The translations under genes and the position numbers were made by a program. 31,780 nucleotides of DNA from Rotaria sp. (taxonomy: Eukaryota): contig CAJNOF010000018.1 in the NCBI GenBank assembly GCA_905250055.1, forward strand, positions 1,159,575 through 1,191,354, written 5' to 3'. Below are positions 3,623 through 28,657 of the stretch, in pieces. Positions within the stretch are counted from its first letter, which is position 1. The number at the start of each line of letters is the position of its first letter. The notes under the pieces are model-generated. The model was not told where the DNA came from and made no database searches. It worked only from the letters and a program-made list of their open reading frames with translations.

Positions 3623-6295
3623 ACATTCATGTCAATTGATCTGGTACTGTCGAAAAAATAATTTGAAATTTTTCAAAATTTCATTTCTAAACTTGAGTTT
3701 CGAATGCAATTCTACAACAATCCAAGAGGCTATACGAGAAATTTTATTCTAATTGGGCTCCTTCGAATAGTGGAATCATTTTACATACGAAACACAGTTC
3801 AAGGTCATAACAATAAACAAGAGGAATTGATTCAGAAAACTATCAGATTCTTGAGTACATGCAAAACCTATATGAATGGTCTTGACTAGATGTTACTTCA
3901 AGAGCCATTTGAATGTACCAAAAATTAGGATTGTCAAAAGCAACACTGGTATTTTTAGAGTTAGTCGTGAAAGAATTTCTTGAAAGATTAATCCTAAATT
4001 TTTATATTTATTTTTCTGTGCTCAACAGGTACAGTAACAAAACTGAAGAGTTAATACTTTAAGAAGTACAACAAGGAGAAAAAAGCACAAATGAAGAAAT
4101 TGCTAAACTGCTATCGAGTTAAATTTATGTATGTTGTGTTTCAGATATGCAAAAATCTATGGCAGTTATCGAAAAAATTTCGAGTCTTGGAAATAGAACT
4201 GAATAGTAAAAAGAATCCTATCATATTTATAAATAAAAATAGCTGAATGCACATCTCTGATTAGAATAGAATAATAACTTTAAATCATCTTAATATTTAA
4301 AACAAGTCAGTTCAAGTTTTATATCATGATCATTGTCCATCATTTATGAAAAATCATTTTTATCTTTCACATGCTTTCTTTCTTTTTTAATGACAAATCC
4401 TCCATTTTTGTATATTTCCTTATTAAAATTTTATCTTTCACATCATAAAATACCGTACACCGTTTCGATATGCAAAATCATGAAACTCTAATATTTCTCT
4501 TTCCTGGAATAAACTAGCATAATATTTAGGCAACATTTCTTTCCATGATTATATGACTATTAAAATGTATGTTTTGAAACTGATTAAATTTGAATGTGTT
4601 TCGAAAAAGATTGAGCATATTAATTGAAAGACGACTCTCGTTCATCTGCTGTATGCATATTTTGTCATAGCCAATGATTAGATCTCAATAATTGTATTCA
4701 TACATGTTGCTGACATTAATTATTCAGATGATTGTGAATTTCATTTCAACTTCTTTAGAAATTCTATTTAACTAATTGTAAAGTTGCTCGCTCTTATCAG
4801 AAGATGTTTCTTCGGTCAAAATTCGAGTATTAATATGGACTCAAATTCGGATCTACATCTCACTAATTTTCATAACAATTGATGTTATATTACATGCTTT
4901 TTTCAATGAGATCTACAGAAGCCGAACACAATTTTGAGATATCAATTTGTAAAACTTTTCTCTATATATTCTATTTCATTATCATCTAATTGATTAACAA
5001 TAGGATGATGAAGAAATGTCTTTCAAAATACTTGAATTTATGACTCGGTCATGACGTTTCATATTGATATGACAGTATATTCAAAAATAAAAAAATCTCC
5101 TGTCAATTGTTGAATACTATGGATCTAATTAAAATTTGAATTTCATTGATCTAATTCTGCTATAACTCAATTTCTCAAATATTTTGAGTTGTGAATCAAT
5201 TCTTATTACAATAGGCAAAGCTGAAGAAAAGATGTTAAATAAAAGCGTCTGTCTTTTGTACATGTTCTAGTTTTAGTGAGAAGAAATATTAAATTTATTT
5301 TAGAACGAAATCATTTTTTTTTGTTTTTTTTGGGTCTTTTGTAAAAATTCAGTAATTTGATAACGAAATAGTATCATAACCTAAAATTTTCAGGCTATAT
5401 TTCTAGACTTTGTCAAATTAAGAAGACACAAATTATTGACTTTTTGTTATGATTACCAAAAATATACGTACAATAGCAGAATAGTGTTTTTTTATAAACC
5501 AATCCAACGTATCAACTCGATTCTTTTGTTACTGGCATTAAGTTATTTAGATATGGTGATAATATATTTTTCAAAAATAATTTTTCGTTTTGGTAATATT
5601 ATCACGATTAATTGTCGTTCATATTCACTCTATTAAGTACTTGGTTGCAGGTGCATTTTTCTGTGACATGTGGGTAAATGAAGATAGGATCTTCCCTTCA
5701 ATCACATTCACTCATCCTCACACTCAATCACATGTAGATCCACACTATTGTGAAAGAAAACCAATGTGATCACATGATTTTGATGATAATATATCACAAA
5801 TCTAAAGAAATAAGATATTTTATTGTTTACAGAAGAAATATGTTTTATTCGTATAAAGATTAATCTAGTATAAGAAAAATAAATCTTAATAAATAAAAGA
5901 AATATAGAACAGATAAGAAGAACTTTAAAGAATGAATAGAAAACAAAAAAAAAAGGAAAATGAAATTTCGATTGTTGTACTATCAAAGCAGGTTCAACTT
6001 TTCCTAGTCTATCTCTTCTTCTTTTCTTTCCAATCGACACTGTTTTTGTTACTTGAGGCGGGTTTGAAATATTTCAAATGAATACTCACATCAACAACGT
6101 ATTTTCATATACAATTCTCAAGTAACAACTTGACTATTTTCGTTTTGATGTTTGACCAATTTTTATTATGGTCCATATTCAAACAACAAATATCAAACGA
6201 TTTTTTGAATGGATTAAAAGCAGTTCAATTTCTGCTTTTACATACATTTAAATTAGCTTGTTTAATCGATTGAAAATCACAAGCTGGTATATAAT

Positions 6296-6756
6296 ATCTT
6301 CTATTATTTTATTTTAATCAATTTAATGTGATATTAATAATTTATTTAAATTTCAAATTTGTGACGTTTTCGCATCTCGATGAAAGAGTTCATCAGACAT
6401 TAAAATTAAGGCAAATGACATGTAAATAAATACAACGAGAATAACAAAAAATTTTCTTTTCTTTAATATGAGTCATACATTTGATAGTGATACGAAAAAG
6501 GACTCAATCTCTATCTACGTAGCTATTATTATTAGTCTTGTTTTCTATATCACTATCAAATGTATGACTAATATCAAAGAAAAGAACAAAAGAAAATTTT
6601 TTGTTATTCTTATTGTATTTATTTACATGTCATTTGTCTTAATTTTAATGTCTGATGAACTCTTTCATCGAGATACGAAAATGTCACAAATTTGAAATTT
6701 AAATAAATTATTAATATCAAATTAAATTGATTAAAATAAAATAAAATAAAAGAAGA
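6296..6756. repeat. Long near-perfect palindrome of about 460 bp, a foldback-type hairpin element.
   Basis: 6300-6455 is the reverse complement of 6585-6750, and the centre 6455-6585 is itself palindromic (AGTCATACATTTGATAGTGATA / TATCACTATCAAATGTATGACT). Track ORFs 6468-6695(+) and 6619-6816(-) are mirror-image artefacts of the palindrome. Confidence 0.75.
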
Positions 6757-8130
6757 GAATAAAATCATGTCAAATACAGTATATAATATCTCTTTGAGGA
6801 ACCATTTGAAATACAAATTATATATTTTTTATTAGTGATTTCGCCGATTGATACGATAAAGTCCATAATGATAAAGATATTGATGATTCTGTAGCAAATA
6901 TTTTTGATTCATTGAGGTATTATCTTATTCCATTGACCAATTATTAAACAATATTTGAAGTTATTGTCAAAAAATTTCATAGAACCTGAGTTTTCCTACA
7001 CGTTCCATCATCTTTGATTTTTTTGTTGGTTGTTTCTAGAGAGTTGTTTATGTTTGGTACATAAAGTTGTATATCTTCATATCAACTTTTATTTATTTTG
7101 CATCATTTATTGTAAAAAAATAATTCAAAAAGTCTAATGTTGATCGATCTTTTTTTTTTGCTTATTGTTCATTTTCCACTTTATAAGTAATGTTAATATT
7201 ATCTAAATGAAGCTGTAGAATTGGACAATTGAAATATTTCAATACCTTTTATAATTTTTTTTTTGAAACATATGTATCATCTATTTGAGTTACTCTTGAA
7301 TAAATTTCGATTTTTATTATTACTATTTAATTTAATGATTTTTAAATATAACAAAAAATCTAATTATTTTAATAGCGGATCATTTAAATAGTTTACTGAC
7401 CACTCAAAATGATAGCCAAAATTATTTGCGTACAAACATTTGTGATTTTCATAACTAGTCTATAAATTTTCATCAATATAATAGCAGAAAATAAGAAGAA
7501 AAAAGTCTTTTAATTTTTCTTTTTTAATGTAATATTTTCAATATTTTTAAATATAAATAAGCTAGTATATATAGTTTTGAATCCTTTTCTCTTGATTGTT
7601 CGGCATAACTTTTGTTGATATTGATCATTCTATATAATAATCGATGTTCAAATTTCGAGACATCATTTAATAAAATTCTTGAATCTGCTTTTAAGTTAAC
7701 TTTTCGTAAGTCTTCCAATAAAATAAATAATTTAATCTTACTGAAGAATTGAGAAAAGATTCTCATGACTCTATTTTTATATGGACATATATATATCTGT
7801 TATTATCTCACTTATCTACTGTTGATAAATAGCTCTTGTAGAAAAAAGTCAAAGGGCGTACTCTCACATGTATGAATACGATGTACAAAACCTATTTTAT
7901 CATAAATGACGTCGACGAAAGAAAACAAAAACTTACATGCGTAAGCATAGGCATGCTTTATATATAATGACATATTGTATAATTGGATTAATATTTTATT
8001 TCTTGATTAATCTACAATAATGACAAAAATACTATTCAAAAAATAAGATATAATGTCGCCTACGTTGTCTTCGTTCTTTTTTTTTTTGTTTTTTAGTTGA
8101 AGTCATGCTCTATCAACCACTTTAATACTG

Positions 8131-8137
8131 TATAAAT
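8131..8137 (+). promoter_or_regulatory. TATA box (TATAAAT) about 70 bp upstream of the ATG of the WAP-like gene. It is conserved in the inverted paralog.
   Basis: CTGTATAAATCTCATCAATTG is conserved as TATATAAATCTCATTAATT on the minus strand of copy 2. Confidence 0.45.
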
Positions 8138-8206
8138 CTCATCAATTGTACAAAACAAATCGTTTTTTTACATAAGACTATTCAAGTTTGATATTATCAA
8201 AGGATC

Positions 8207-8671
8207 ATGAAAAAGTTAATCTTACATTTATTACTAGCTACTTTGACTATTGTTGCTCTATGTGCAGCTCAAGATGATCGAATTAAAATTGACAAACGAC
8301 GTGCTATACCCATAGCAACTCGAACAGTTCCTCCAATTGTCATTGGTTCAAAGACTTTCTGTTTAAGATTCCCATTTTCACCTAGATGCCATCCATGCAA
8401 ATATAGTCAACCAATCAGAAAGGCTATTTGTGGACAAGGACAAAGCAGATGTGAATTATTAGGTGGTACATGTAAATTTAATCAATATGAGAGAGCTTAT
8501 TGTTGTCCATATGAACATCGAGGTTGCTGTCCTTTGGTAATATATTTTCCTATTATTACTGGACGTCCTCCTATATGCCGTTCTCCACAATGTAGAACAG
8601 ATGCGCAATGCAAAAATTATGAAAAATGTTGTGGAATTTGCCGACAATGTGTCAATGCTACACTCGCATAA
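8207..8671 (+). CDS. Secreted cysteine-rich protein (154 aa, single exon) with an N-terminal signal peptide and a C-terminal WAP-like four-disulfide-core motif.
   Basis: Uninterrupted ORF. The N-terminus is hydrophobic (MKKLILHLLLATLTIVALCAA). There are 16 Cys, including CRTDAQCKNYEKCCGICRQC (the C..D..C....KCC..C..C WAP signature) and CC pairs (YCCPY, GCCPL). A paralog lies at 21843-22301(-). Confidence 0.75.
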   Translation: MKKLILHLLLATLTIVALCAAQDDRIKIDKRRAIPIATRTVPPIVIGSKTFCLRFPFSPRCHPCKYSQPIRKAICGQGQSRCELLGGTCKFNQYERAYCCPYEHRGCCPLVIYFPIITGRPPICRSPQCRTDAQCKNYEKCCGICRQCVNATLA

Positions 8672-8733
8672 TTACGAAGAGTAATATTTATTTTGCCGAC
8701 AAATAAGCTTGAAAACTCTTTTTTTGTGTAACA

Positions 8734-8739
8734 AATAAA
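8734..8739 (+). terminator. AATAAA polyadenylation signal about 65 nt after the stop codon of the WAP-like gene.
   Basis: ACAAATAAACTC is conserved in the copy-2 3'UTR (CAAATAAACTTTG on the minus strand). Confidence 0.4.
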
Positions 8740-9142
8740 CTCAATTCAATTATTTTTACTTCGTGTTTCGTTTCACAAAACAGAATTCTTCTTCTTATGT
8801 AACATTTACAGTAATATTAGGATTGGAATCAAGAAAAACAACGAGATTATCATTTTTTTTTATCTATTGAATAGAGCCGTTTTCGTGAGAAATATCTTTG
8901 GAATAAATAATATATTGTAATTTAATGAATGCCTTTTTATGTCACATCCATTAGAAAAAGAATATTATTTTCGGAAGCTATGTTTTAATACATTGTTTAG
9001 TTCGACAAAAATTCGAATAGCTAAGATTACATTACTGTGTATTTGTAATTTGCTTACCCATTGAAAAATAGTTGTTATTCGTGAAACAAGTTTATTACAA
9101 AATGTATATGTAAAGTACAAAGGACATAAGTGTTGCGAATTG

Positions 9143-9700
9143 TATTTTTCTTATTAAAAATTTAGTTTATAAATGAAATAATTTTATGAAGTTAGATAGG
9201 AATAGTGCAAGAATAGACTCTTCCAATATAATTTATAAAGCTTACAATGAAGATACAAAATGTTGATGGAACATTGGATGCTTCATTGGACCGCTTTCTC
9301 TAGCACCTCGTATTATTTTAAGTTTTCTATTTGAATTTTATATCCAATAATGTTCTATATTAACTAAATGGCGCAACAATCAGGACTATAACTAGATCAT
9401 TTGTATACTTTAGAATTATGTTCGTAACTAGAGAACGTGACCTTTCAAGCATGCAGTGATTTTTATATACAAATGTTATTCAAAAATGTATGGAGAAAAA
9501 TACAAATGATATACGAACACATTTCTCTTTCGTTGTAAACTTCTAATTATATTATAAGTATCTATTCTTATAATATTAATATTTATCGTTGTAACATTAT
9601 TTCAATCACAAACTGGATATTTAATATCAAAAATACGATTCACAATATTTTTGTTATCGGTTGATACGTATACATCATTGATATTTCACATAAAATTGTT
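9143..9700. repeat. Downstream flank segment duplicated near 21000-21500. Sub-blocks A and C are in direct orientation and sub-block B is inverted.
   Basis: A: 9143-9222 approximately equals 21020-21100 (direct; TTTATAAATGAAATAATTTTATGAAGTTAGATAGGAATAG vs TTTGTAAATGAAATAATGTTATGAAGATAGATATAAATAG). B: 9236-9375 approximately equals the reverse complement of 21195-21349. C: 9620-9700 approximately equals 21420-21500 (direct; AATATCAAAAATACGATTCACAA vs AATATCAAAAATATAATTTGCAA). Confidence 0.6.
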
Positions 9701-10188
9701 ATATCAATTCAGTTTTTGTTGAGATATGATCAAGTTTTTTCTTTACTTTTATTTCAGATCTTAGTTATTGTCATTGGGCTGATTCAAATACAAATCTTGC
9801 CATGACCATTCTATGTGTTGCATCGAATAAAACGGAGAAGTAGGTAGACATTGAGTAATAAAAAAAACTCACGAGAGAAGATTCACCAGTGATTCGCACT
9901 GTTTGGACTCATCTTTTGCTGACATGTGGAGCTCATCATATAGATCAAATACCTGAAAGAGTTCGTGCCATTGCTGTATAGTTTCAAAGTTATGAGCGAA
10001 GCAGCTGTTATGATGGATGGTGTCACCCAGAGATGGAACCAGTCTACCGGTACTAAACAGAATGCTGATGATACGCCAGTTTATTAGAGAAAATTCGACC
10101 TACCGTCAAAATATCGATCTACAGACAACAGGCTGAGGCTTGAAATGAAACCTTGTTTCATGGTAAACTCTCTTGCGGGCTATCTTCC

Positions 10189-11876
10189 AGAGACCGTCAC
10201 AGGGCAGGACTGCCCTGATGCCCTGCCCTGTTCTTCAGGGCAGGGCAGGGCGAAACTTTTTGCTCTGATTCAAAGAAAGTTTTTAGCAGAGTGTGAATAA
10301 AATTCAGTTTTTTATTAGAAAACTGATTAAAATGGCAAAATTGTCATTGAATTTTAACCTAATTATTTGATGTTCAATCGATTAAACTTTGTGACTAGAT
10401 CAACACTTGTATATTCCATTCAAATTTATTTTTCTAGTACCTTTTTCTCAAGAAGTTTTTATGCCAGAAGGCTTTCTTGCTCAGCTCAAGAAGTGTATGT
10501 GGATCAAAACAAAGTTTAACCGAGAGATCCAATCAAATGTTGCCTGTCGATCTTAAGAGAAGACTTAATTTATCTCTGTTGAAAAATAGCCGCCTTTCGT
10601 ATAATATCCACGATAAATAAACAATCATTTTATTTTATATTAGAAGTTCGTTCACAAGAGCACAACAAAGGCGAAATAGAAGCTAATCTGATTCCTAATT
10701 TTGTTTTCAAAAATTCTGAAATTTCTTTAGATTTATTAATGTCAAACTTGGTTTTTTGAGTAACAGACAATTGTTTTACAATTAAAATCACTTTACTCCG
10801 ATTAAAGAATTTTTTTCAGCAAAAATCTTAGTATTCTGCAATATTTAGTTTCTAAAACGTCTATCAACGATAAAAGGCTAAAGTTCAAATTTAAATTGAT
10901 TGTTTTTGGATTAAAAATCAATTGTAATAGCACTACTTTAATCGGATTTTGTCAGCTAATAGACAGATTTCATTCGATTTAAAATCTTTTTTCATTTATT
11001 ATAATCGATGACTCAAAATACAGCAATTATAAATTATTATTAGAAATCGATTTCAATTGATGAAAGTTATTTCACCCAAAGTATTATTAAAAAATCTTAC
11101 AATAAAATGAAATCTGTCTTTTTGACTGAAAACTCTGGCTAAAGGCAGTCTAAAATAGTGCTATTTTAACTAACGTTTACGTCAGACACAATCGATTTTA
11201 ATCTAATCTTGAACCGTTTTTCTACATGGACAAATAAGTCTCAGAATATGTTTTTAAATGTTTGGTTCTATATGTGAATGCGAGGAAAAAACTTGGCGAT
11301 GAATGGAAGGCCAGTATTGGTAGGGTTACATGAACTTTCGTAATAGAAAACCATCACGTTTTATTTCATGGAAATGAGACATGAGTTTTATTTATTGCTA
11401 TGTTAGTTTATACAATTGAACAAGCAATTATTATCGTATGTTGAAACATGATATGTCAAAGATCGACTTAATATTACACGTACTGTTTGTCTTAGTAAGG
11501 AGTTCAGAAAAAATGAATTTTTTAAGTTTCACTTTCAAAAATACACCATTCAGCCATATCATTATTGAAAACGGTTGAAAATCGAATAATCTGATTCTAA
11601 TAGTAGTATTTTCATTCAATTTTTAAACATAAGAAGTCCATTAAAATGATATGATTTCTGAAGCTCGTACAACAGTACTTCTTTCTGGTACATGATGGTG
11701 TTTAATTACATAATAACTTTGATTGTGGCACTTTCGAAATAACATAAAGTATGAGTATAAAATTCGAAAGCAATCAAATAATTTTTATGAAGATTTTAGA
11801 TCTTATACTATAGGCTTACTTAGCTTAGACACCCTGCCCTGCCCTCAGGGCAAAAAAACTACCCTATGACGGTCTC
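10189..11876. mobile_element. Non-autonomous DNA-transposon-like element of about 1.69 kb with GC-rich TIRs ((A)GAGACCGTCAyAGGG...CAGGGCAGGGCAGGG) and a probable 11-bp target-site duplication.
   Basis: The left end 10189-10255 (AGAGACCGTCACAGGGCAGG...CAGGGCAGGGCAGGGCG) is the reverse complement of the right end 11831-11876 (CACCCTGCCCTGCCCTCAGGG...CCCTATGACGGTCTC). The flanking direct repeats are GGCTATCTTCC (10178-10188) and GGCTACCTTCG (11877-11887). The AT-rich interior has internal inverted repeats (10907-10985 vs 11110-11175) and no ORF. Confidence 0.7.
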
Positions 11877-12089
11877 GGCTACCTTCGTACCTTCACGCAT
11901 AATGGCATAATGCTTCACAGTTGATAACAATAGTCTCATTGATGGGCATTCTGAGAATTATTTGTTAAATAAATTCGTGTGTGATGAGTGGAACTAGTCT
12001 TGGTTTCAGTTGTTTTTTCATGTGAATACCATCAAAGAGTAGGAAAGTGAAATTTAGATCGGTATAAGGCGGTTTCGACTGATGAGACC

Positions 12090-12165
12090 AGTTTAGACCG
12101 GCCGATCTAAAAATCCAGACCGGTACCGAACCGGATAGGACCGGCCGGTTACCGGTACCGGTTCT
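12090..12165. repeat. GC-rich ACCGG/CCGGT palindromic hairpin, related in motif to the element at 215-540.
   Basis: GGTACCGAACCGGATAGGACCGGCCGGTTACCGGTACCGGTTC is self-complementary. Track ORF 11965-12405(-) runs through it and reads TRGRTGTGNRPVLSGSVP, which is low-complexity and probably not coding. Confidence 0.5.
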
Positions 12166-14801
12166 ACCTCTGGTGTCACCTTCTATGCAGTACTTTTTTG
12201 TTCCTTTTGTAGCTTGACTAGATGATAGCCTTTTGCATAGAGGCTTATAATACATACTTGTTTCAGCTTGCTCGAATGAAAAACGTTTTAAGAAATATGA
12301 TTCAGTTACATTATGGAAAATAGAAACCATTATTGAATAGATGGTAGCACTATCTATCATAGCAGATATTTCGCTCATAACTTGGAAACTGTGCAACAAT
12401 GGCACGAACCCTGTAAGGCATTTGACCTATATAATGGGTCCCACATACCAACCAAAGATGAACCCAAACGATGTGAATCACTTGGAAATGTTCCTCGTTA
12501 GACTATGAAAGAATACAATGAGAAGCAATAAATCACTAAACCATATACATATGAAAAGAAGAGATAAAGAATAGAGCTATTAAGAATCTTATAAGTTCTA
12601 TTTAATGAATGAGTGAGTGACAGATATATCCAGAATGAATAATTTTTCTGTTCTCTCTTACACCATTCACTGAGTTTCTCTTTCAACTATAGGAACACAA
12701 ATGTATTTTGATCGAATGGTTATTTAACTTGTTGTAATAAAAGAACTCGGACATTTCAATAACTAATTACATCTTTCTGCGTAGTTTATTGACAATCAAA
12801 CAGCTCGAATCTTGTCGTCATTCCTTTCTTATTTTCATGAAATGAATCATATTTTATATTTTTCTTAACAAACTAAACTCATGACATTGCCTCTATCATA
12901 ATATACTCTGTCATCAATTTAGTGATGCATTAAATAATTGACAATAACAAATTCAGTCCAACATGAAAGCTCACAAATGCTTATATTATCAAGAAATTTC
13001 TATTTACTTTCAAAATATTTTCCAAGTCGCTGTATGTTATAAATGAACGCGAAAACTATTAACTATTTGCTGTTGCGCATAAATGCAAGATAATATTACA
13101 TGTATAAAAATAAATTTTTTTTTAAATATCTTTTTAAACAAAACATATGAGACTATAGATGACTGTTTTTCTTGTAAATAATGGATGACTTATAATCCAT
13201 GACAGGACTTTGAATTTTATTTTTTCATCGTCTAATACATTTCATTAAAAAACAATATATATCCACAAGATGTAGCGTACAAAGTTCTCGACCGTACGAA
13301 AACTGATTACAAGGAATTTTAATTTTTTTTGAAAACAATTACAATAAGTTTTGCTGTATATTTTGAAATTATTTTTACTGCATCAACCCGATAAAACAAA
13401 TATGAAAATAATAGATTATTTTTAATGGTTTTTACCATTTTTATCAGAATGTATAAAACATATTTTCAGTATGTTTCAAGAGATTTTATTGAATTTAAAT
13501 TTTATTTACTTATTCAATGATTATGAATAACAAAAAATATTTTCCTTGTAATTGTGTTAATTGTGAAAAGTTAGTATTTAAATGAAGTTTTTGTCAAGAT
13601 TTTTCATTTTACTTGTTAATTGAATTCCTTTTTTTTTTGTTGTTTCGTATATTTAAGCTTATATTTCTTATATTTGAATAAAAACTTATCTAATTCATTC
13701 ATTGATTTTATGATGAAATTTCTCTAATACAAGTTTAGTTTTTTCTTTAATTTAGGTTATATTTTTTCACAAAAGTATACTTGAAATCATGCGTTTGTCT
13801 TTGATATAAGATAAAGAAGAAAAAATGTTATTTTGACATCATATTTCAATATTTTTTATTTTGTTGAAACTTTTATTTTGCTATTTTGATTTAAATTTAA
13901 ATCAAATAATTCTATTCAATTTTTTGTTTCCATATTCATACGTATTGGTGTGAACGGAGCCGACGGATTCTGATGAACTGCAAATCCTTGATGTAAGGCT
14001 TGTGAAGGCGAAACCTCAGTGAGCATGTTCGATAACATGTGCCTAATATCCTCGCTTTTACCAGACCTCTAAAATTCAAGTGTAAAATATTCTCAAATCG
14101 ATCTAAATCGATCATGATAGCTTTACATCGAACATATTTTTACTTAATATTAAACTAAGTATTTTATGACATGATTGTGCAACAATTTCAGAATAGTATT
14201 CTTGTATATGGGATCCCGAAGTAAGTACGTATATTTGAATTTGAGATAACTACTTAAATAGAACCTCAACATAAACTTCTCATCCTTTTGAATACTAAAA
14301 TTTGCATTCAAATATAGAATATGTTAATAAGTGTGATATTGTGTTGTTCTGTTTATTGTTCGAATCTCAAAACTGTACAGCAAATTCAATTGTCTCATCA
14401 AATGTTTATTCTAATTTAGTATAAGTCACTCTTCTTTTCGGTCTTCAGATTCTACTATGAATGCAAGTGAAGATATAGTGAACAGACAGAGATGGCAATG
14501 CGACTGAAGTGGACATCTTCACCAAACATCTTCAATCTCAATTCTAAAGCAACACAAATGCCTTGTCTCCTTTAGTTCTTGTGCTTATGTTAGATGGTAT
14601 GTGTCAATGTCACTTATTTGCTTTAATAGCATGCACAAAAAAGCTTTTGATTGTAAAAAAACAGTAGAATAAAGAGAAGACCATTGACGATGATATTTAT
14701 GTTACATATCAAACTTAACGAAATTTTTCATTATCAAGAAAATGTAAATTAATTATCCAACTAATAAATACAATGAAGTGAAAAACTTTTTTCTTAGATA
14801 T

Positions 14802-15147
14802 TTAATGTTTTTCAACGAAATTAATAAGAGAATTAGCAATCTTTCCATGACACAGTATGGAATTCTTTTGTATTAATCTTGCACATAAACACTTCAAGCT
14901 AAGTTTTGTTTTAGTTCTAATAAATTGCTTAATATTTGAATTTGTTGCAATATCAATAGGTGTCTCTCGTAAAGCATTGACATAATCAGCATGAGAACCA
15001 GCATCAAATAGATATTGAATTATAGTATTATCAACTATAGTTGATTGGGAAACAAATATATGAAGAGGTGTGTTTTGAACAGCATCCCTGGCATTCACAT
15101 CAGCACCACATTGTATAAGTAAATGAACTGTATGTAAAGATGGATAT
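14802..15147 (-). CDS. fem-1: fem-1 homolog, exon 3 (final exon). It encodes the C-terminal ankyrin repeats and tail.
   Basis: Acceptor TTATAG|A at 15148. The translation ...YPSLHTVHLLIQCGADVNARDAVQNTPLHIFV...LKCLCARLIQ...INFVEKH* aligns without gaps to the FEM1B C-terminus ([21 protein letters not shown]...LKCLAARAV...EEFVGFH). The stop codon is at 14799-14801. Confidence 0.85.
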
Positions 15148-15201
15148 CTATAACAATCGATAATCTTTCACAAATAAGTATTTTAAGAAAAAAAAACATA
15201 C

Positions 15202-15371
15202 TTGCAAATGAAGTCGATGAAATAGTCATTTGCAGATGTATGATTACTTAAACTTAAATGTAATAGAGAAGATCGATAGGTTTGGGTAACATATTGACGT
15301 TGAATAATGCTGTGAATATGTCGATAAAATAGTTTACGGTCATCATATGAAATCATTGATTTTGATAGCAT
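15202..15371 (-). CDS. fem-1: fem-1 homolog, exon 2.
   Basis: Acceptor TTGTTTAG at 15372-15379 (minus sense). Donor AA|GTATGT at 15201. Intron 2 is 54 nt (15148-15201). The translation ...LLHLSLSNHTSANDYFIDFICK matches FEM1 [23 protein letters not shown]. Confidence 0.8.
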
Positions 15372-15434
15372 CTAAACAAGAAAATCTCGATTGAAAAAAA
15401 AGAACAGCAAAATTTCAGCTAGATATCTCAATAC

Positions 15435-16796
15435 CTGACTAACGATTGTTATTAAGAAAAGTAAAGTATGTAGATTATAATCAAAATCTTTCGTATGATG
15501 TTCTAATTCTTCAATTACTACTGTTATTATTGTCTGCCATGATACAATCGGTATCGATAATGAATTACGTAACATGTCACTAAACATTGAAGCCCACTGA
15601 CGCAAATCTTCCATGTCAATAGATAATGAGTACTGTCGACGTAAATTAAGTTCATACAACCAAAACTCAATTCCTCGATAATGCTCTGCATTATCAGCTA
15701 GAGCGGCACCATGATATTGAAGAGAACGACGATATTTTGTATTAGTTGAACCAAGCAAACGTTCACGTACAAGTAATGCTTCAATGTACATATGATTATC
15801 ATTTAATTGAAGTTTTTTTAATTCATCGATTGTTTGACATTCTTGTCGATTATCAAATACTTCAACAGTTGATAACCGTAGAACTTTAGGAAGATTATGT
15901 TGAAATCGAAGTTCAAGTGCTCGATAGAAGTATTCAAACGATTGTTCAAGATTATAGCTTCCATGTTCACCACAGGCAAAAGCACTTCCAAGTAATTCAT
16001 GCGCTTCGATTTTTTCAAGCAATGAACATTGTGGAGAAATAGCATCGACAAGATCAATTCGTCTCTTTTCAGCTGCTAATAATAGTGGAGACATTTGATC
16101 ATGATTTGATCGAAAATTTCGAGCACCATGATTTAGTAAAAATTGAACTAATTCAAATGAACCACGATCTACAGCAAAGTAAAGTGGTGAACAACCATTA
16201 TCCATTGATTCATTTACATCACAACCTAATTCATCAACAAGATAAGTTACCATTTTTAAATCTTCATTGTAAACAGTTAATATAAGATTTGTTTCATTAT
16301 GTATTTTGGCAATATGTATATTAGCACCGTTCTTATTCAAATAACGAGCAATATTCATATTACCATTGGAACAAGCACAACGAAATGCTGTTGAATTTGT
16401 TTTAGTTGTATGATTAATTTTAGCTCCATGTTCGATAAGTAATTTCACAATATTAACATTGTCAATGGCAACTGCTGCCCATAAAACAGTTACATTTTCA
16501 TACATTAATAAACTTTCATCTCTTTCTTCGAGTTGTATATCATTTAGCACTTCGAGATCAACTCCAGAATAATTAAGCAATATTTGTACTATGTCTTCGA
16601 ACTCATTTAAACAAGCAATCATAAGTAAAGTACATTTTTGTTTGTTCGATTCATCATATGTTCGATTTAAATAGATCTCAGGATTGTTCATTGTCGACAA
16701 ATGATTTTGGAATGTTTTAACATCTCCTTGACGAACAGCAGATAATAGTAAGTTACTTACGTCCTCCTTGAAGTCATCGTTGTATTTCATCGTCAT
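15435..16796 (-). CDS. fem-1: fem-1 homolog, exon 1 (454 codons; ankyrin repeats). The full gene encodes about 626 aa.
   Basis: ATG at 16796. The translation matches FEM1B throughout, for example LWAAVAIDNVNIVKLLIEHGAKINHTTKTNSTAFRCACSNGNMNIARYL vs [49 protein letters not shown], and IEAHELLGSAFA vs IEALELLGASFA. Donor CAG|GTATTG at 15434. Intron 1 is 63 nt. Confidence 0.9.
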
Positions 16797-18738
16797 TGCA
16801 AATGCATAGAAATGAAAAAAAATAATGTTTTACCTTGCATTTCTATTCACACGTGCAAGTTGTATTTCTTGGATATTTCTTCCGCTCTTCTGTTTTCTTG
16901 TGTTAGTTAAGATGAATCATAGTATGCATAGAAGGTAAAAAATATTTTGACTAAACAGAACAATAAAAATACACTTATGTTCAGCTGTTCTTTTTCTAAA
17001 ATATTTGATTGTCAAATAGTGATAAGTCTTCATGAGTTTTTATCTAATGTTTGATTAAAATAACCCAGTGTGTAAAATGATTGATAATTCTTCTTATTAT
17101 CTTAGAAAATTGTATGATATTTGAATTCATTCCATACAATCAATACTGTAAGGAGAGAAGCAGTTAGGTTTACAAATCCTTTACAATTATTAATAATAAT
17201 TTACTATTTTTAATAATTCATCATTCTATATTCAAAATCACAAGCTAATTATGAGTTTTAATTTTAGTTGTAAAATAAATGAAGAGTTAAGAACTTTATA
17301 TCAACTTGAAAATGATTGACAAAAAAATTCAAGTTGGCGTTTCATTATAGAAATAGTCAAATATAAGTTTTAACACGACTATAATTTTAGTAAGAAACAG
17401 AAACCATCGTAGAAATTTCGTGAATAGATTTAGAGTGAGAGAGATGACCGAATGAAACACGGGACATCATCAGAGTTCTATTGAACCTCTACTTGAATTA
17501 TAAATATTAATTCACTCAAACTCTATTTTTGATTATGGATATGAATTGCTAATGGTTCGGTTTTATCATTTTTATTTATATTCGAACTCAAATTAGACTA
17601 CTACTCAAAACATCGTACCATGCAGCTAATTTACTTCTTGATAAAAATTTATTATCATTGTTTGCGTTACCTTATTTAGTGTTTTCATTAAATATATGTT
17701 TGTGCAGTGAAGATTTACTTGTTCATACTACAGTAGTTAATTTTTGTAAATTTGAAAGAAATACATGCCACTTGTTCTGGATTTTGTTGGTTCATTAGTA
17801 TTCTTGCATGTGCGCCTAGAAAATGCAAGTAAAGAATGATCCCATATTTCCACTACACAGTGGAATTAAGTGTTCAGTTGATCGCATGTCTTAGAACAGT
17901 AATACCCGTCGTGACAATATCAAGAATATCTCATTAAAATATTTTTGTAGTAAAATTCACTAACGTTTAATTATAATTCATCAAAATATTAATAATCAGG
18001 CATTGAAACGATTTATCAACATCTGACAATATTAAAATCTTTAAATGCTAAAAGCTATGAAAAAATAAATGTGTGCAGATTTCAGATATAATAGATACTA
18101 TTTAATGGCTATTATCATAAGACTTTATTAGTATAATTAAAATCGCAACTATACTATATTTTTTTCGTTCCTTATATACTATTTCCTAGCATAGAGAGAC
18201 CTTGAAAAATACAGTAAACGTAATAACAGAAAAATACGGGGTGTGCAAGGACAAATTCAGAGAAGAACAAAGGTTAAGTTACAATTATAGATAGCGCTAC
18301 GTACGAAGGAAGGACAAACTAATAATGCCATTCCAATGTACATATAGGAGAAAAATGAGATGAAAGCACATAGAAGTATTGATAGATAATAGACAAAAAA
18401 GGCATCGTGGTCATTTCAATCGAGGATAAGGAACAACTTCTTGTACGTTAGATTAGATTGTTATAAAGTGATCTAATGTCAAAAAAAGACAATTAGTAAA
18501 CACAAAAGTTATCTAGCTTTTTTCATACTTGAAAAACAATTGTCTTCTCTCATACAAGGTGACATTCGTGTTCTCAAGATAAGTTTTTTTTTCGTTCTTT
18601 TATCATACTGTTAAGATAAAAACGACAGTAGGAAGACAAACACAATAAACTATTAGATCTTTAGAAAAAGTACAAAAAAGCCAGTATCAGTCTATTTCAT
18701 TCATCAGAATTTAAAAAGATATTCACATAGTTATCAAC

Positions 18739-19725
18739 ATGGTAGACTTTCTACTAGTCAATATCGTTTGGCTTCTTCATTTTGTCATATGTTTCTACAT
18801 TATCCGTCCTATTCGTCACATTCTAATTCGAGCCATTTTGACTTGCGTACCATGTATATTACTGACTGATATTTGCACACGTAATCTTCCTCCACATCAT
18901 ATTTTTTCTGTCTTTACCATTGCAATATATTGGATGGTATCGATTCGTCTCTTTCATTTAGTCGTTCTTACACCTGACACGTTTCCAACATTTTCTTCCT
19001 TTACTGCAAAATGTCTATGGATTCTCTTACCAGTTATACCTTGTCAATCGAAAGAGAAGCAATGGCCTATCATCTTTTATTTGATTTTTGGTGTAGTAAA
19101 ATTTATACTTAATCGTTGGTTACATAGATGGTTACTGATATGTGAATCAAATGATAGTTATATGAGAGTATTTATTTATTTCTTATCAATATTAACATTT
19201 TCATATGTAGTCGATATTGAGACGGTTCTTGTGCGAATAATCACTCGAGATAAATATACACTTCAATCACTTAACAATTTTCCATTCTTCTCTCAATCAT
19301 TACGTGAATTTTGGGGTCGACGATACAATCGGATCATCAGTACAATTTTCAATGAATCAATTTTTCGGCCTCTCAGTTTATTTATACCTTCTCGATCAAT
19401 CGTATCTTTATTAATATTCATTATCAGTGGTCTTTTTCATGTACATATTGTCTTTATTGTTTTCAATGAGCCTTCATCGGCTTTGCCTACATTTGCCTGT
19501 TTCTTTCTGAATGGTATTGCTTGTTGCATAGAAGCACATCTTGCAATTAAGTTACCACCATTACTTGGATGGTTGGTAACACATAGTGTCCTTTTTGTAA
19601 CAGCACCAATGTGTCTTGGAACGTTTGCACGAGACAAATCTGTATTTTTTGGTCTAGATGGTCTTTCAACGTATGGTGATCAATGGATTTCAAAATTGCC
19701 TATGCCCAAGAGTTGTCCGAAATAA
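18739..19725 (+). CDS. Intronless multi-pass membrane protein (328 aa) with MBOAT_2 / wax-synthase-like acyltransferase motifs.
   Basis: Uninterrupted ORF with many hydrophobic segments. It contains SLREFWGRRYN (compare the wax-synthase / MBOAT_2 motif S..FWGRRWN) followed about 45 aa later by IISGLFHVH (compare the conserved vSGllHE histidine motif). Confidence 0.55.
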   Translation: MVDFLLVNIVWLLHFVICFYIIRPIRHILIRAILTCVPCILLTDICTRNLPPHHIFSVFTIAIYWMVSIRLFHLVVLTPDTFPTFSSFTAKCLWILLPVIPCQSKEKQWPIIFYLIFGVVKFILNRWLHRWLLICESNDSYMRVFIYFLSILTFSYVVDIETVLVRIITRDKYTLQSLNNFPFFSQSLREFWGRRYNRIISTIFNESIFRPLSLFIPSRSIVSLLIFIISGLFHVHIVFIVFNEPSSALPTFACFFLNGIACCIEAHLAIKLPPLLGWLVTHSVLFVTAPMCLGTFARDKSVFFGLDGLSTYGDQWISKLPMPKSCPK

Positions 19726-20996
19726 ACAACAACAAGAAAAATGTCAAAACTGTACTGATATGTTTTATGATGATCAGTATTGAATAAATAAAAGAAAAGC
19801 ATTTTTTTACAATTTTGTAGTGAACTAAAACTCGTAAACGAAGATTGTTAAAAGTCGACGTCAAAATGGACGTAATTGATTTTAATTGTATTCGCACGCT
19901 ATAGCTCGAATAATCATGCTTCACAGAGATGATAGCAAAGAATTTTTTTTGCCTATATGTAGTAACAAAATGAATAGGTGGTGTCAATAGGCAACAAATG
20001 GCCCTGAAGTATCAGAGTCTATTGAGCTCGATCAGTTCCTATTTCAATCCGACAACTCTGACTGATTAATCGAATAAAACATTCGAACCAACTGATCTGC
20101 AATAGATACACTCGGATTAATTCAGAAGCAATTGTGGTAAAAGACATTCATATAAAAATAATGTAACTTTGATGATCTACATTCATTACGGTGTCTTGAG
20201 ATCAGACAAACAAACTATTTTTGCACTACAATCGAGGCAATCAATCGTGCGCATGATTTTTTTTTCGGCAGTTTTTTTTACTGATTCGCTCGACTTTTAT
20301 TATGAGCCAATGTATCAAGAGGTAGCTCATAATTGATAAGAAGAACGAAAATAAAGCTTAATGTAGTACTCGGCAATATTGAAAATCTAATTACAAGTCA
20401 ACGTAGAATATTATTTATTTTCTTGATTCATTCTCAATCAATTTAATAAGGACTCTGGAGAGAGAACTAAACAATACAAAGACTATTAGGTACAACAATG
20501 TCATTCATGCAAGAATATTTTAGTCGGTTCTCTTATTCATCTTCTTCTCAAACATTTCTTGCCTGGTCATGGTATTCATTTCGGCTTGTATATAGTTCAG
20601 AAGAATGACGTTCAGATGATAGATAATTTACAATACAAAACAGTACAAAGACTCTATTCAGTATCAGCACAGTTTTTCCTTTGCATCTTCCATTAACACA
20701 TAATAAAAGTTGAAAAAAAAATAATAAATCACAAAAATAAAACTGTATTTCATATGCGTGTCTAATAATATTTCTATTAGAACATAACTGAGTTTTTTTT
20801 ATTACTCAATGTCCACTAAATTTTCCGGTTTTTTACATGCAATATATACAATATCCTGGCATGCTTGGTACTTGAACCAGCCAAATAAAAAAAGCTAAGA
20901 TATTAGATAAAAATACAGAAAAATTTTGATCATTTTTCAACAAAAACACCATTGATATAAAAGTATCATATATGAAATGTCATGATACATACGTAT

Positions 20997-21500
20997 CTAC
21001 CAATGACAAAAATACTATAAGTTGTATTTTTGATATAAAATATAGGATTTGTAAATGAAATAATGTTATGAAGATAGATATAAATAGCACATAAAAGTTG
21101 ACAACGAAAGGACAATATGTTTATATATTGTTTGTATTTTTCTCAATACATATCACATTCTCCAGTTAAGAATATTTTTTTGAAGTATGCAATTAATCAA
21201 ATTATAATCGTGATGTTTACACTATTGAGCTAATATGAAACATTATCAAATGGAAAATTAAAATAAAGAACTTGAAATCACATGTTAAACTAGAGAATAC
21301 GATCCGATGAAGTATACAATGTTCTATCAACACTTTGTATCTTCATCTTAAGCTTTTTACTACACTAGAAGAGTCTATTCTGGTACTATTCATATAAGTG
21401 ATTTCATTTATAAACTATAGTTTTAATATCAAAAATATAATTTGCAACACTCTTTTGTCCCTGGTAGTATAGTCAGACATTTTGTAATAAACTTGTTTTA
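20997..21500. repeat. Second copy of the downstream flank segment, A' and C' direct and B' inverted, adjacent to the inverted gene arm.
   Basis: See the 9143-9700 entry. The reverse complement of 21311-21349 (CAATGTTCTATCAACACTTTGTATCTTCATCTTAAGCTT) matches 9236-9275 (AAGCTTACAATGAAGATACAAAATGTTGATGGAACATTG). Confidence 0.6.
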
Positions 21501-21842
21501 CTACTAGGAACTATATCTCAGTGGAGAAGTACATTACAAATACACAGCAATATAATCTTAGTGATTTGAAATTTTGTCAAATTGAACAACTTTTTACAAC
21601 ATAACTTCCGAATATAATATACTTTATCTAACGGATGCAATATAAAGAAGTGTTCATTCTTTTTTTTTCTTTATACCACTCTTCATAATATTATAAAGGT
21701 CACAGAAAGAGGATACTTCTGTTTTGTGAAATGAAACACATAGTAAAAATAATTGAAGCAAGGCTATTAGTTATGCAAAAAACAAAAAAAAAGAATTTCA
21801 AAGTTTATTTGTAGGCAAAGTAAATATTAGTCTTTGTAATTA

Positions 21843-22301
21843 TTAATAGACGGCTGGAACACATTTTCGGCAAATTCCACAACATTTTTCATAAGGTTTG
21901 CATGATGCATCTGTTTGACATCGATGACAGAATGGACTAGGACGTGGAAAGATAATAGTTCGGTATTCTACTGTTGGACAACAACCTCGATGTTCCCTTG
22001 GACAACAATAAGCTATGCCGTATTGATTAAATTTACATGTACCACCTAATGCTTCACATCTTCTTTGTCCTTGTCCACAAGTAACACCTATAATTGGTGA
22101 GCCATATGTGCATGGATTACATTTGGTTGATGATGGAAATTGTAAACAGTACTTAATTGGATCAAAGATAATTGGAGGAACCGTTCGAATTGGTATTAGT
22201 ACAGTACGTGATTTGTCAATGTCAACAGAATCACCTGGAATTGCATGTAAGCCAACAATAGCCAAAGTTGTTAATAATAAGCGTAAGATTAACTTGTTCA
22301 T
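21843..22301 (-). CDS. Secreted cysteine-rich protein paralog (152 aa, single exon) with signal peptide and WAP-like four-disulfide-core motif.
   Basis: MNKLILRLLLTTLAIVGLHA signal peptide. The Cys framework is conserved with the 8207-8671 product (CGQGQRRCEALGGTCKFNQYGIAYCCPREHRGCCP...CQTDASCKPYEKCCGICRKC). I estimate about 65% amino-acid identity. Confidence 0.75.
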   Translation of the reverse strand: MNKLILRLLLTTLAIVGLHAIPGDSVDIDKSRTVLIPIRTVPPIIFDPIKYCLQFPSSTKCNPCTYGSPIIGVTCGQGQRRCEALGGTCKFNQYGIAYCCPREHRGCCPTVEYRTIIFPRPSPFCHRCQTDASCKPYEKCCGICRKCVPAVY

Positions 22302-22368
22302 GATCCTTTGATAATATCAAACTCGAATAATCTTATATAAAACATAATTTGTTTTGTAAATTAATGAG

Positions 22369-22377
22369 ATTTATATA
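22369..22377 (-). promoter_or_regulatory. Conserved TATA box (TATATAAAT on the minus strand) about 70 bp upstream of the copy-2 ATG.
   Basis: Minus-strand read GATATTATATAAATCTCATTAATTTAC. The position matches that of the copy-1 TATA. Confidence 0.4.
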
Positions 22378-24122
22378 ATATCATAGTGATTGACAGGGCA
22401 TGACTTCAATGCAAGAAAAAAAAAATTAAGACAATGTAGGCGATGTCATATCTTTTTTTTTGAATCATATTGATCTATTTTTGCCAGTATTGTAGATTAG
22501 CGTTGCAAAAAAATATTCATCTAGTAATAAAATATATCGTTGTATAAAACATGACTATACTTACGCATATAGGTTTTTGTTGTTTGTCTTTCGTTGACGT
22601 TATTTACGATTAAATGGATTTTGCGCATTGTAATTACACATGAATGAGTATGCTCGTTAGCTTTTTAGATGCATTATTTATCGATAGTAGATAAATGAGT
22701 TAATAATAGGTATATACGTTAATATAAAAATACTATCATGAGAATCTTTTCTCAAATATTCAGTAGGATTAAATTGTTCTTTTTATCTAAAGACTTATGA
22801 GAGGCTTAGTTGAAAATAGATTTAAGAAGTATATGAAATTATGCCTTGAAATTTGGTACATCGATTATAATATAAAATGATCATTATTAACAAAACAAAT
22901 GACGAAAAACGAAGAAAAGACAAAAAAAAAACAAGGACTCACAATTGCATATACTACTTTATTTATGTTTAGACATATTTTGAAATATTACATTAAAAAA
23001 TTATAAGACTTTTTTCTTCTTATTTTCTGCTATTATATTGCTAAAAATAAATACATCTGTTGTCAAAATCATAAATCCTTGTACGTAAACAACTTTGACT
23101 ATTATTTAAGTGGTCAGTAAAATATATAAATCATTAACCATTAATATAGTTAGCTTTGTTAATGTATTTGCAATCAGTAAATTAAACTAAATTAAAATTA
23201 AAATATATTAAGAAGTAACTCAAATAAATGATACATATATTGAAGAAAAAATAATAGAAGATATTGAAATATATCAATGATCTTATTCCTTTAGATTTGT
23301 AGCGTAGTATCATCAAAATGATGATAATATTGGTTTCCTTCCACAATAGTATGGGTTTGTATGTAACTGAAGAAAATACTCTACTCTCACGCGACAGAAA
23401 AAATTCATTTGCAGCAATTTTATCAGAATCACGAAAGCAATTCACTTACATATTGATATTATCTATTTTAGTAATTAGTAGATTGGCTATATGAAGAATA
23501 TATTTTGACAAATTAGAACTATCAAGTCAAACATCTCAAACTTCTCTTAGGAAAAGTCAGATTTATCTAATAAATCGAATATATCACTACGTAACTATAT
23601 CATGTGCTTGTCAGGAGAACTTTCATAATTGATGACACATATTCAATAGACATTGTCACATTGTGAAAAACCGCAAAGAATAATTTATGCCATACAATAT
23701 TCTAGACTTTCTTGAAGAGATATAATTATCTGTTTTTAATTGTGTTCTATTCAATGGATAATTTTGTCATAGTAAGAAGTCATTTTTAGCCAATCGTTCA
23801 ATACTGTTTATGTCGTTTGAGAATGACCTTGAACCATTTTATCAAGCATTGTTTGGTTTCAACGAGAACTACGACTGTTTTCATAATAATAAGGATATAA
23901 AATAATATCAATATGTATAATCATTTATTCATTCATGAATATCTTGAAAGAAATGTGTTTTGTTTTCAATGATTTCTATTTTGTTTATTAAATAAAACGA
24001 CGCAAACCAATCCACAATACGAAAGCAGCGATAGAAGGAAAGAAGATTATTTTGTTGCTTATAGCTTTTTTCAACACGAACAATATCGAAAGAAAAACAA
24101 GTAAAAATAAAGAAACAAATAT

Positions 24123-27961: not shown

Positions 27962-28359
27962 TTATTGGATCGTATGAAGTTTTTGTTTTTTCTCTTGTTT
28001 TTTCCGTCGAATTCTTTCTAATTCTTCACGTGTAGGATCAATACCAAAACAATATTTCAATATATCCATTATGACAACAAACATAGCAACACTTATCATA
28101 GCAACAATTCCAAGATAAGCAAATGATGTCGAAACAGCTTTATAAATAACAATTTTCGTAGAAACTCCTTCGCAATGACGACCATAATAACTATTACCAA
28201 GACATTCACATGTATAATTCAACAATAATGGTCGACAAACACCATTATGCTCACATGTAATATTATCACAAAAGTTTATCATTAATTCACAGTTAGTTCC
28301 TTGCCAACCATCATTGCATATACAATAAAATGTGGTATTTGATGTTTCATTACATGTAC
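27962..28359 (-). CDS. EGF-repeat single-pass transmembrane protein, terminal exon. It encodes the end of an EGF domain, one full EGF domain, the TM helix and a short basic cytoplasmic tail.
   Basis: Acceptor TTTTGTTTTAG|GTACATGT. (G)TCNETSNTTFYCICNDGWQGTNCEL..FCDNITCEHNGVCRPLLLNYTCECLGNSYYGRHCEG then a hydrophobic run IVIYKAVSTSFAYLGIVAMISVAMFVVIMDIL, then KYCFGIDPTREELERIRRKKQEKKQKLHTIQ*. Stop codon at 27959-27961. Confidence 0.75.
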
Positions 28360-28417
28360 CTAAAACAAAATAAGTCTTATGAATTTTTTTTAGATAGTTT
28401 AACAATAATCTATTTAC

Positions 28418-28657
28418 CATGATCCAAACAAGTATGTGATTTACAAGGTCGATAATCAAATTCACAATCAGTACTATTAAAACCAGATGGACATGCACAA
28501 CAATAACCAAGGATTTTACTCTGATCATTTACACATGATCCATTATTTTGACATGGTTTACTCATGGCACATAAACTATTAGAAATATCGCAATAGGTAC
28601 CAATCATTGTTAAATCGTTACAAGGAGTTGGCTTAAAGGCTTGTAATACTGGTTTAA
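28418..28657 (-). CDS. EGF-repeat transmembrane protein, internal exon (EGF domains).
   Basis: Acceptor CCCTTTAG|TT at 28658. (V)KPVLQAFKPTPCNDLTMIGTYCDISNSLCAMSKPCQNNGSCVNDQSKILGYCCACPSGFNSTDCEFDYRPCKSHTCLDHG with donor G|GTAAAT at 28417. The Cys spacing is the canonical EGF pattern (C-x4-C-x5-C-x8-C-x-C-x8-C). Confidence 0.7.

Follow-up and report, generated by a model that had tools for sequence, protein, structure and literature searches.

A convergent gene pair encoding putative secreted WAP-type proteins within an inverted duplication of the bdelloid rotifer Rotaria sp. Silwood1

Small secreted proteins built on the WAP four-disulfide core include the waprins of snake venom, of which omwaprin has antibacterial activity, the chelonianin protease inhibitors SLPI and elafin, in which a longer C2-C3 segment carries the inhibitory loop, and the crustins, immune effectors of crustaceans with a Cys-rich region of four cysteines and a total of 12 conserved cysteines. 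Small secreted proteins combining WAP and antistasin domains are also present in limpet pedal mucus (P-vulgata_12) and sea-star footprints (Sfp3, 8 and 15), where they were interpreted as protective inhibitors (PMC7333891, PMC9382459). Here we describe two genes, A and B, from an AT-rich stretch (∼30% GC) of 31,780 nt of the bdelloid rotifer Rotaria sp. Silwood1, hereafter the window (GenBank assembly GCA_905250055.1, contig CAJNOF010000018.1, positions 1,159,575 to 1,191,354 of the forward strand). According to our reading, to which we assign a probability of about 0.72, A and B are convergently oriented paralogs that arose by a 2.6-kb inverted duplication, and that are maintained by selection as small secreted, disulfide-rich proteins of WAP type with a fast-changing surface. 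The source assemblies were described previously (PMC7943196). An initial annotation, made from the nucleotide sequence only, had set the genes in the context of parasite effectors; this was mistaken, as Rotaria sp. Silwood1 is a free-living bdelloid rotifer.

The inverted duplication and its two genes

The duplication, its genes and their candidate regulatory signals are located as follows (window coordinates).

7218..9871, forward strand: arm A, with a complete transcription unit, ∼1 kb upstream of it and 1.2 kb downstream
20789..23288, reverse strand: arm B, pairing with arm A as 23288-20789
8207..8671, forward strand: coding sequence (CDS) of gene A, a single exon with an uninterrupted open reading frame of 154 amino acids
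21843..22301, reverse strand: CDS of gene B, a single exon with an uninterrupted open reading frame of 152 amino acids
8131..8137, forward strand: TATAAAT, a consensus match only, 76 nt upstream of the A ATG within a conserved TATAAATCTCAT block
22369..22375, reverse strand: TATAAAT, 74 nt upstream of the B ATG in the same conserved TATAAATCTCAT block
8734..8739, forward strand: AATAAA, 62 nt past the A stop codon
21804..21809, reverse strand: AATAAA, 33 nt past the B stop codon

The 2.6-kb arms are 75-84% identical (blastn, MAFFT). Arm A is spanned by a chain of inverted-repeat pairs (I1-I22), a detached piece at 5773-5823 pairs with 23273-23323, and the homology of the arms is far beyond chance. 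Both genes are intronless and face each other in convergent orientation. Since the TATA block, the CDS and the AATAAA signal are common to both arms, the whole transcription unit must have been duplicated. Nucleotide identity between A and B is 74.2% of aligned positions in the CDS, 83.8% from -200 to -1, 77% from -1000 to -201, and 75-80% of aligned positions in the 1.2 kb downstream. The initial annotation was therefore right that the flanks (75-84%) are about as conserved as the CDS, and the promoter that it held to be retained corresponds to the TATAAAT block ∼75 nt upstream of both start codons.

Protein A is identical to P0001, an 'unnamed protein product [Rotaria sp. Silwood1]', and the annotation of five assemblies includes its gene, as one exon of 465 nt. 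An exact look-up of protein B in the public collection returned no gene with an identical product on record, and gene B is likely an unannotated gene. The two proteins are identical at 93 of 153 positions (61%, E 1e-54, BLASTP), slightly less than the ∼65% first estimated, and have diverged as paralogs. In the mature part, each of the 17 cysteines has its aligned counterpart in the other protein (in A, C52, 61, 64, 75, 82, 89, 99, 100, 107, 108, 124, 129, 135, 141, 142, 145 and 148). The sole unmatched cysteine is C19 in the signal peptide of A, which is a His in B, so that the statement that every cysteine aligns holds for the mature proteins and not for the leader. Two motifs quoted from the start, CxxDxxCxxxxKCCxxCxxC and CGQGxxRCExLGGTCKFNQYxxAYCCPxEHRGCCP, are found in both proteins. 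The products divide into the following parts.

8207..8269, forward strand: signal-peptide-like leader of A, residues 1-21, MKKLILHLLLATLTIVALCAA, read from the sequence
8270..8359, forward strand: variable linker of A, residues 22-51, with 40% amino-acid identity between A and B
8396..8506, forward strand: middle six-cysteine module of A, residues 64-100, C-x10-C-x6-C-x6-C-x9-CC
8528..8650, forward strand: predicted WAP-type four-disulfide-core module of A, residues 108-148 (hhalign, PDB profile, Foldseek)
22002..22112, reverse strand: middle six-cysteine module of B, residues 64-100
21861..21980, reverse strand: predicted WAP-type module of B, residues 108-147

In the leader of A, a basic n-region precedes a hydrophobic core of 15 residues, positions -3 and -1 are occupied by small residues, and QDD follows; AlphaFold2 (AF2) predicts a helix at residues 2-21. 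Leaders of the A/B type are present in most family members with a complete N-terminus. An N-terminal hydrophobic leader can be read in each of the two proteins, consistent with the signal peptide proposed earlier, and both A and B would be secreted. In B the cleavage site of the leader is less canonical, and the C-terminal N-x-T sequon has been lost.

Family architecture and the C-terminal module

Homology searches retrieved ∼40 relatives, and all those with a species name belong to Rotaria. Members from R. magnacalcarata and R. socialis carry the UniRef name 'WAP domain-containing protein', and the true homologs (P0057, P0059, P0014, P0015, P0022, P0025 and others) reached E-values of 1e-27 to 1e-56. 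The fuller architecture of the family consists of an antistasin domain (6 Cys), the middle module (6 Cys) and a WAP module (8 Cys), amounting to 20 cysteines in members that lack a counterpart of C107. In the A/B subgroup a linker stands in place of the antistasin domain, and only C52 and C61 are kept, aligned with the last two antistasin cysteines. The Antistasin hidden Markov model (HMM; PF02822) and its six-cysteine pattern (C-x4-C-x3/4-C-x2-G-x6-G-C-x2/3-C-x-C) gave no match in A or B, whereas relatives score 22-31 bits, above the threshold. The equivalent of the linker is a longer Pro/Ile-rich stretch in several relatives and an antistasin domain in others.

Several lines of evidence lead us to read the C-terminal module as a divergent WAP four-disulfide core, an assignment that is clear at the level of the family and not from A or B alone. 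The eight cysteines of A (C108, C124, C129, C135, C141, C142, C145, C148) and of B (C108, C125, C128, C134, C140, C141, C144, C147) follow the WAP order C1..C4-x5-C5C6..C7..C8 and the signature C-x-x-[DN]-x2-C-x5-CC, both proteins having C-xTDAx-C-x5-CC. Across the family the C1-C2 loop is long, and the C2-C3 loop has 2-4 residues. Among 35 aligned family members, Pfam WAP is found in 22 (E up to 10; best 4e-6) and Pfam Antistasin in 13. Four members pass the gathering scores of both, with WAP scores of 21.3 (P0014), 27.5 (P0015), 26.5 (P0022) and 26.9 bits (P0025) against a gathering threshold of 20.8 bits for PF00095. In profile-profile comparison (hhalign) the family's C-terminal module matched 15 bona fide WAP domains with 97.3% probability (E 2.8e-11) over 44 columns with 8/8 cysteines in register, while the middle module, used as a control, reached 0.1% against canonical WAP. 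These 15 domains came from proteins with Pfam WAP E-values of 1e-16 to 1e-53, all taken from among the family profile's own matches. Against PDB sequences, the family profile matched only WAP chains, those of nawaprin and SLPI (E 0.04-0.25), and the top Foldseek matches of the predicted model were omwaprin (best) and half-SLPI. A first AF2 model, of full-length A with nine sequences, was too poor to be used (pLDDT, the predicted local distance difference test score, 57). Finally, WAP C2 and C7 are lost together in three relatives (P0015, P0061 and P0067), as expected if these two cysteines form a disulfide. The canonical WAP pairing is C1-C6, C2-C7, C3-C5 and C4-C8, and the family evidence bears on one of these pairs, indirectly.

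This assignment should nevertheless be taken with some caution, since a number of observations weigh against it and against the account built upon it. Taken singly, A scores 7.1 bits with Pfam WAP (E 9.2), below the gathering threshold, and B has no match, so that the earlier term 'WAP-like' stands for the C-terminal module of the family and fails for A and B searched alone; other Pfam matches of the two single proteins were spurious, to domains of unknown function. The C6-C7 and C7-C8 spacings of two residues are below those of the canonical WAPs compared. The number of cysteines in mature A and B (17) is odd. C107 or its equivalent, directly before WAP C1, is present in most members including A and B and missing in ∼9 relatives, which thereby have an even count; it is an extra and probably unpaired cysteine. 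Moreover, protease inhibition of the elafin type appears doubtful for A and B: in the HMMER alignment, C2 of SLPI and the segment up to C3 (CLMLNPPNF) have no aligned counterpart in the family.

The middle module is the best-conserved part of the family. Searches of Pfam and of PDB sequences gave nothing for it, and comparison with the WAP and antistasin modules of the family gave no match either. Its interpretation as a degenerate WAP or antistasin domain was rejected on hhalign probabilities of at most 1.3%. The Lustrin cysteine-rich repeat (PF14625), a candidate for the middle module, gave no match in the 35 members at E-values up to 10. A resemblance to granulins likewise had no Pfam match, and granulin A appeared only as a meaningless Foldseek match (E 5.1). 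Literature searches for antistasin or the WAP domain in rotifers, and for whey acidic protein in bdelloids, yielded nothing on the A/B family.

Rates of evolution, maintenance and history of the copies

Pairwise ratios of nonsynonymous to synonymous divergence (dN/dS, omega) between A and B are 0.82 with NG86 (bootstrap 0.51-1.40), 0.97 with LWL85, 0.90 with YN00, and 0.49 with both the Biopython maximum-likelihood method and our own GY94-F3x4 implementation, the latter rejecting omega = 1 (p 0.01). Over the six pairs formed by A, B, P0010 (a third Silwood1 paralog) and P0002 (the copy of Rotaria sp. Silwood2), gene-wide omega ranges from 0.45 to 0.92 (GY94) or from 0.75 to 1.45 (NG86). No pair is significantly above 1, and five of the six are significantly below 1 with GY94 (p 0.005-0.035). 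Neighbouring ankyrin, vault and nuclear-receptor genes at the same evolutionary distance have omega values of 0.14-0.29 (GY94), or 0.18-0.35 for the ankyrin and vault genes with NG86 and YN00; omega of the four copies is ∼2-4 times that of their neighbours. When A-B codons were split by their conservation in 31 distant relatives, omega was 0.16 at conserved positions, 0.45 at positions less than 80% conserved (mid and variable), and 0.61 at the most variable positions (less than 50% conserved). The linker (residues 22-51) is the only region with omega above 1, from 1.8 (GY94, p 0.36) to 2.9 (NG86), which is non-significant. The proteins evolve fast between their cysteines, and positive selection is undemonstrated by pairwise omega. 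The initial view of divergence on a constant scaffold is borne out insofar as evolution is unusually fast while 17 mature cysteines are kept; the diversifying selection that it invoked finds no support in the gene-wide ratios.

It could still be hypothesized that the mature peptide, as an effector or inhibitor in an arms race, is under diversifying (positive) selection, with conserved flanks beside a diverged CDS as its signature. The elevation of omega over neighbouring genes and the ratio in the linker would agree with this. So would the level of dN (0.26-0.33), which equals or tops the non-coding divergence of the arms (K80 distance 0.21-0.30), and the comparison of B with P0010, in which the CDS (K80 0.316) exceeds the flanks (0.207); gapped alignment of AT-rich DNA, however, biases non-coding distances low. 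Polymorphism provides a further argument. Among six Silwood1 haplotypes, the CDS of A has one variant, which is synonymous, where ∼7-13 would be expected from the long-term omega, as compared to 60 variants in 2190 columns of flank (28 in 1880 without a hypervariable edge). This deficit is significant with all flank sites (Fisher p 2.5e-5 in a Hudson-Kreitman-Aguadé-like comparison, Poisson p 4e-5) and weaker without the edge (∼0.008 by a hand Poisson estimate), and the valley of low polymorphism also extends over ∼360 nt of promoter and hence is not confined to codons. The level of dN and the polymorphism deficit are no more than suggestive of something beyond drift. Set against them are the failure of omega to exceed 1 significantly in any pair or region, the preference of GY94 for omega below 1 in most pairs, and an omega of 0.30 in the WAP C1-C3 loop. 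As for the flanks, A and B differ at synonymous sites (dS 0.33-0.54) about as much as neighbouring genes do between Silwood1 and Silwood2 (0.31-0.52), and neutral DNA of that divergence can still be aligned (∼77%). This accounts for their conservation, and reading it as a mark of diversifying selection is unwarranted, as no special explanation is needed. On balance we consider diversifying selection a rather unlikely explanation of the pattern, though one deserving serious attention.

Of the 60 flank substitutions among the six haplotypes, 27 fall within a single 155-nt bin (9707-9861) at the end of arm A, beside a transposon-like insertion; this cluster reflects either true local hypervariability or faulty alignment across the junction.

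Two further readings deny the pair its standing as two working genes, and both were rejected. One copy, most plausibly the unannotated B, might be a decaying pseudogene and the similarity a remnant of the duplication, as could be argued from the absence of its exact product in public gene sets, the lost sequon, the less canonical cleavage site, and the higher dN and dS of the B lineage in three-way arithmetic on distances. Yet the open reading frame of B is intact with 17 mature cysteines, its omega does not differ from that of A or of the Silwood2 copy, and the TATA block and AATAAA are kept. In neutral simulations with the substitution spectrum and level of the flanks, the frame stayed open in ∼0.2% of runs (P(no stop) 0.002) and all 17 cysteines survived in ∼2e-5 of runs. 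At the indel rate of the flanks, 5.4 events would be expected in the CDS, whereas MAFFT shows one, of 3 nt; all gaps in the alignment of the two proteins are in-frame, and the probability of no frameshifting indel is ∼0.01. Neutral decay is excluded, and both A and B are maintained by selection; since neutral retention of frame and cysteines is so improbable, B is not a pseudogene, and we regard decay as very improbable. Gene B may be missing from the gene sets because gene prediction for Rotaria sp. Silwood1 used RNA sequencing data of a different species (PMC7943196), by which a small, fast-evolving gene is easily missed. The remaining possibility, that the inverted pair is an assembly artefact in the form of a false palindrome or a haplotype mis-join, deserves hardly any credence. 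False palindromes and haplotype mis-joins have been reported in early bdelloid assemblies, which is the sole general ground for suspecting one here, and the loci from other assemblies end before arm B. The arms, however, carry 26 indels relative to each other and mismatch at ∼23-25% of the aligned positions, as against a haplotype divergence of 1-2%. Furthermore, the unique neighbours differ for each arm, the side of arm B being syntenic with the Silwood2 locus and that of arm A with L009, a locus on another Silwood1 contig.

The history of the copies involves more than this window, as the pair is not isolated and has a close paralog on that other contig:

L009 9290-11418 (contig CAJNOP010000103.1), inverted relative to A: third copy, P0010, 152 amino acids, at the position of arm A

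L009 is a paralogous segment whose zf-C4, Kelch and ankyrin genes reach 82-86% identity. In Silwood2, one copy was seen within 10 kb on each side; it lies at the position of B beside the gene for the major vault protein, syntenic with arm B, and is about equidistant from A and B. The non-coding arm of P0010 groups with arm B (K80 0.207 vs 0.26-0.30; 99% bootstrap). As B lies nearer to P0010 than to the Silwood2 copy at the orthologous position, the distances point to ectopic exchange or conversion between the segments, and suggest such traffic between paralogous segments of the genome. A more speculative proposal, which we offer as a doubtful one, is that the middle module ('...CNPCxFGQPL...CGQG...C...GGxCK......AYCCPxE') is an undescribed disulfide-rich domain which, together with the WAP core, defines a family, restricted to rotifers, of effectors in immunity or the protection of secretions that diversifies by episodic positive selection and ectopic exchange between paralogous segments.

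The surroundings of arm A contain two insertion-like structures. A near-perfect foldback at 6292-6761 (arms 6299-6463 and 6585-6749, 165 nt, 95% complementary, with a 121-nt loop) lies within a 1.4-kb stretch (5823-7218) that breaks the upstream homology of arm A to arm B, and looks like a miniature inverted-repeat transposable element or a foldback-type insertion. Beginning precisely at the distal end of arm A, a 2.6-kb block (9877-12493) with 151-nt inverted repeats at its ends (9877-10027 and 12343-12493; 77%) looks like a transposon. It is absent from L009. Four other Silwood1 assemblies lack its interior (∼10188-11877), L005 has at least part of it, and the block is thus polymorphic. The block includes a GC-rich palindrome of the CAGGGCAGG type near 10195-10255.

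The order of genes in the window is a zf-C4 nuclear-receptor gene, arm A, the 2.6-kb block flanked by inverted repeats, genes for Kelch-like and ankyrin proteins, an MBOAT gene, arm B and the major vault protein gene; a tRNA scan of the window was empty. On the reverse strand, an open reading frame at 27962-28528 combines EGF-like cysteine patterns with a hydrophobic segment after them; it probably represents an exon of a membrane-protein gene that has no relation to A and B. At 31468-31780 an imperfect TGT/TTG-rich tandem array with periods of 15, 30 and 45 extends past the end of the window; its opposite strand is CAA/AAC-rich and possibly a low-complexity coding sequence.

Proposed role and comparison with known systems

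Taken together, we propose that A and B arose when an entire transcription unit was duplicated in inverted orientation over 2.6 kb, and that each product would carry a signal peptide, a variable linker, an unclassified six-cysteine module and a WAP core with waprin-like spacing. The A/B subgroup would have replaced the antistasin domain by the linker, keeping two of the six antistasin cysteines. The disulfide scaffold and ∼38 core positions would be strongly constrained, while the remaining surface positions and the linker would change at near the neutral rate, giving an overall omega of 0.5-0.9. Such fast turnover of the surface might reflect weak constraint, possibly with episodes of adaptive change. 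The proteins would be secreted and, outside the cell, contribute to host defence or protect secretions.

By analogy with other WAP and antistasin proteins, the role would be an extracellular one as anti-protease, as antimicrobial, or as both. The lack of a loop of the SLPI/elafin type would make canonical elafin-type inhibition less likely than antimicrobial action in the manner of waprins or crustins, or than inhibition through a different surface. Instead of serving as immune effectors, A and B could alternatively provide structure or protection in a secretion of adhesive or mucus, pedal-gland cement for example. Bdelloids attach temporarily by means of pedal glands, and the proteins of limpet mucus and sea-star footprints cited above would provide a precedent, but the antistasin domain is missing from A and B and the likeness to adhesive proteins is known only as common domain types. 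We consider an adhesive role improbable, and favor that of extracellular defence or protection of secretions.

A and B are divergent members of the known WAP family, in which fast change between cysteines is not unusual. Our results overturn no expectation in this respect, fast change of this kind being well known for WAP and antistasin-type proteins, and their value is modest. What they add is a lineage-restricted, fast-evolving and putatively secreted WAP-domain family in bdelloid rotifers, whose defence against fungal pathogens draws current interest, with a paralog, gene B, for which the public collection searched listed no matching product. They also flag a conserved six-cysteine module without an assignable family, and illustrate cleanly, at one locus, an old inverted duplication with apparent exchange between segments in a bdelloid genome.

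The closest relatives, the Rotaria 'WAP domain-containing proteins' with the order antistasin, six-cysteine module and WAP, have the middle and WAP modules in common with A and B; many of them have an N-terminal antistasin domain above the Pfam threshold, whereas A and B retain two of its six cysteines. The marine-adhesive proteins (P-vulgata_12; Sfp3, 8 and 15) display the same domain combination as the wider rotifer family and are likewise small, secreted and Cys-rich, but differ in domain order and number, and from A and B in having an antistasin domain. Crustins and single-WAP-domain proteins of crustaceans have an analogous layout of signal peptide, low-complexity region, Cys-rich region and C-terminal WAP. 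Their low-complexity region is Gly-rich where that of the rotifer relatives is Pro/Ile-rich, and their Cys-rich region has 4 cysteines compared to 6 in the rotifer module (6 + 2 + 1 before the WAP module in A and B), so that across phyla the resemblance is an architectural analogy only. SLPI and elafin share the WAP four-disulfide core with A and B, and half-SLPI is among the top sequence and fold matches, but they possess the inhibitory-loop segment after C2 where the C2-C3 loop of the family has only 2-4 residues. The best profile and fold matches of the rotifer family are the waprins (nawaprin, 1UDK; omwaprin, 3NGG). These snake-venom proteins come from unrelated taxa and consist of a single WAP domain of ∼50 amino acids, to which the rotifer proteins add the linker, the six-cysteine module and the extra cysteine before C1, and their C6-C7 and C7-C8 spacings are 3-4 residues as opposed to 2 in A and B. 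Waprins are small secreted proteins, as A and B would be, and like them combine a long C1-C2 loop with a 3-residue C2-C3 loop, followed by C3-x5-C4-x5-CC.

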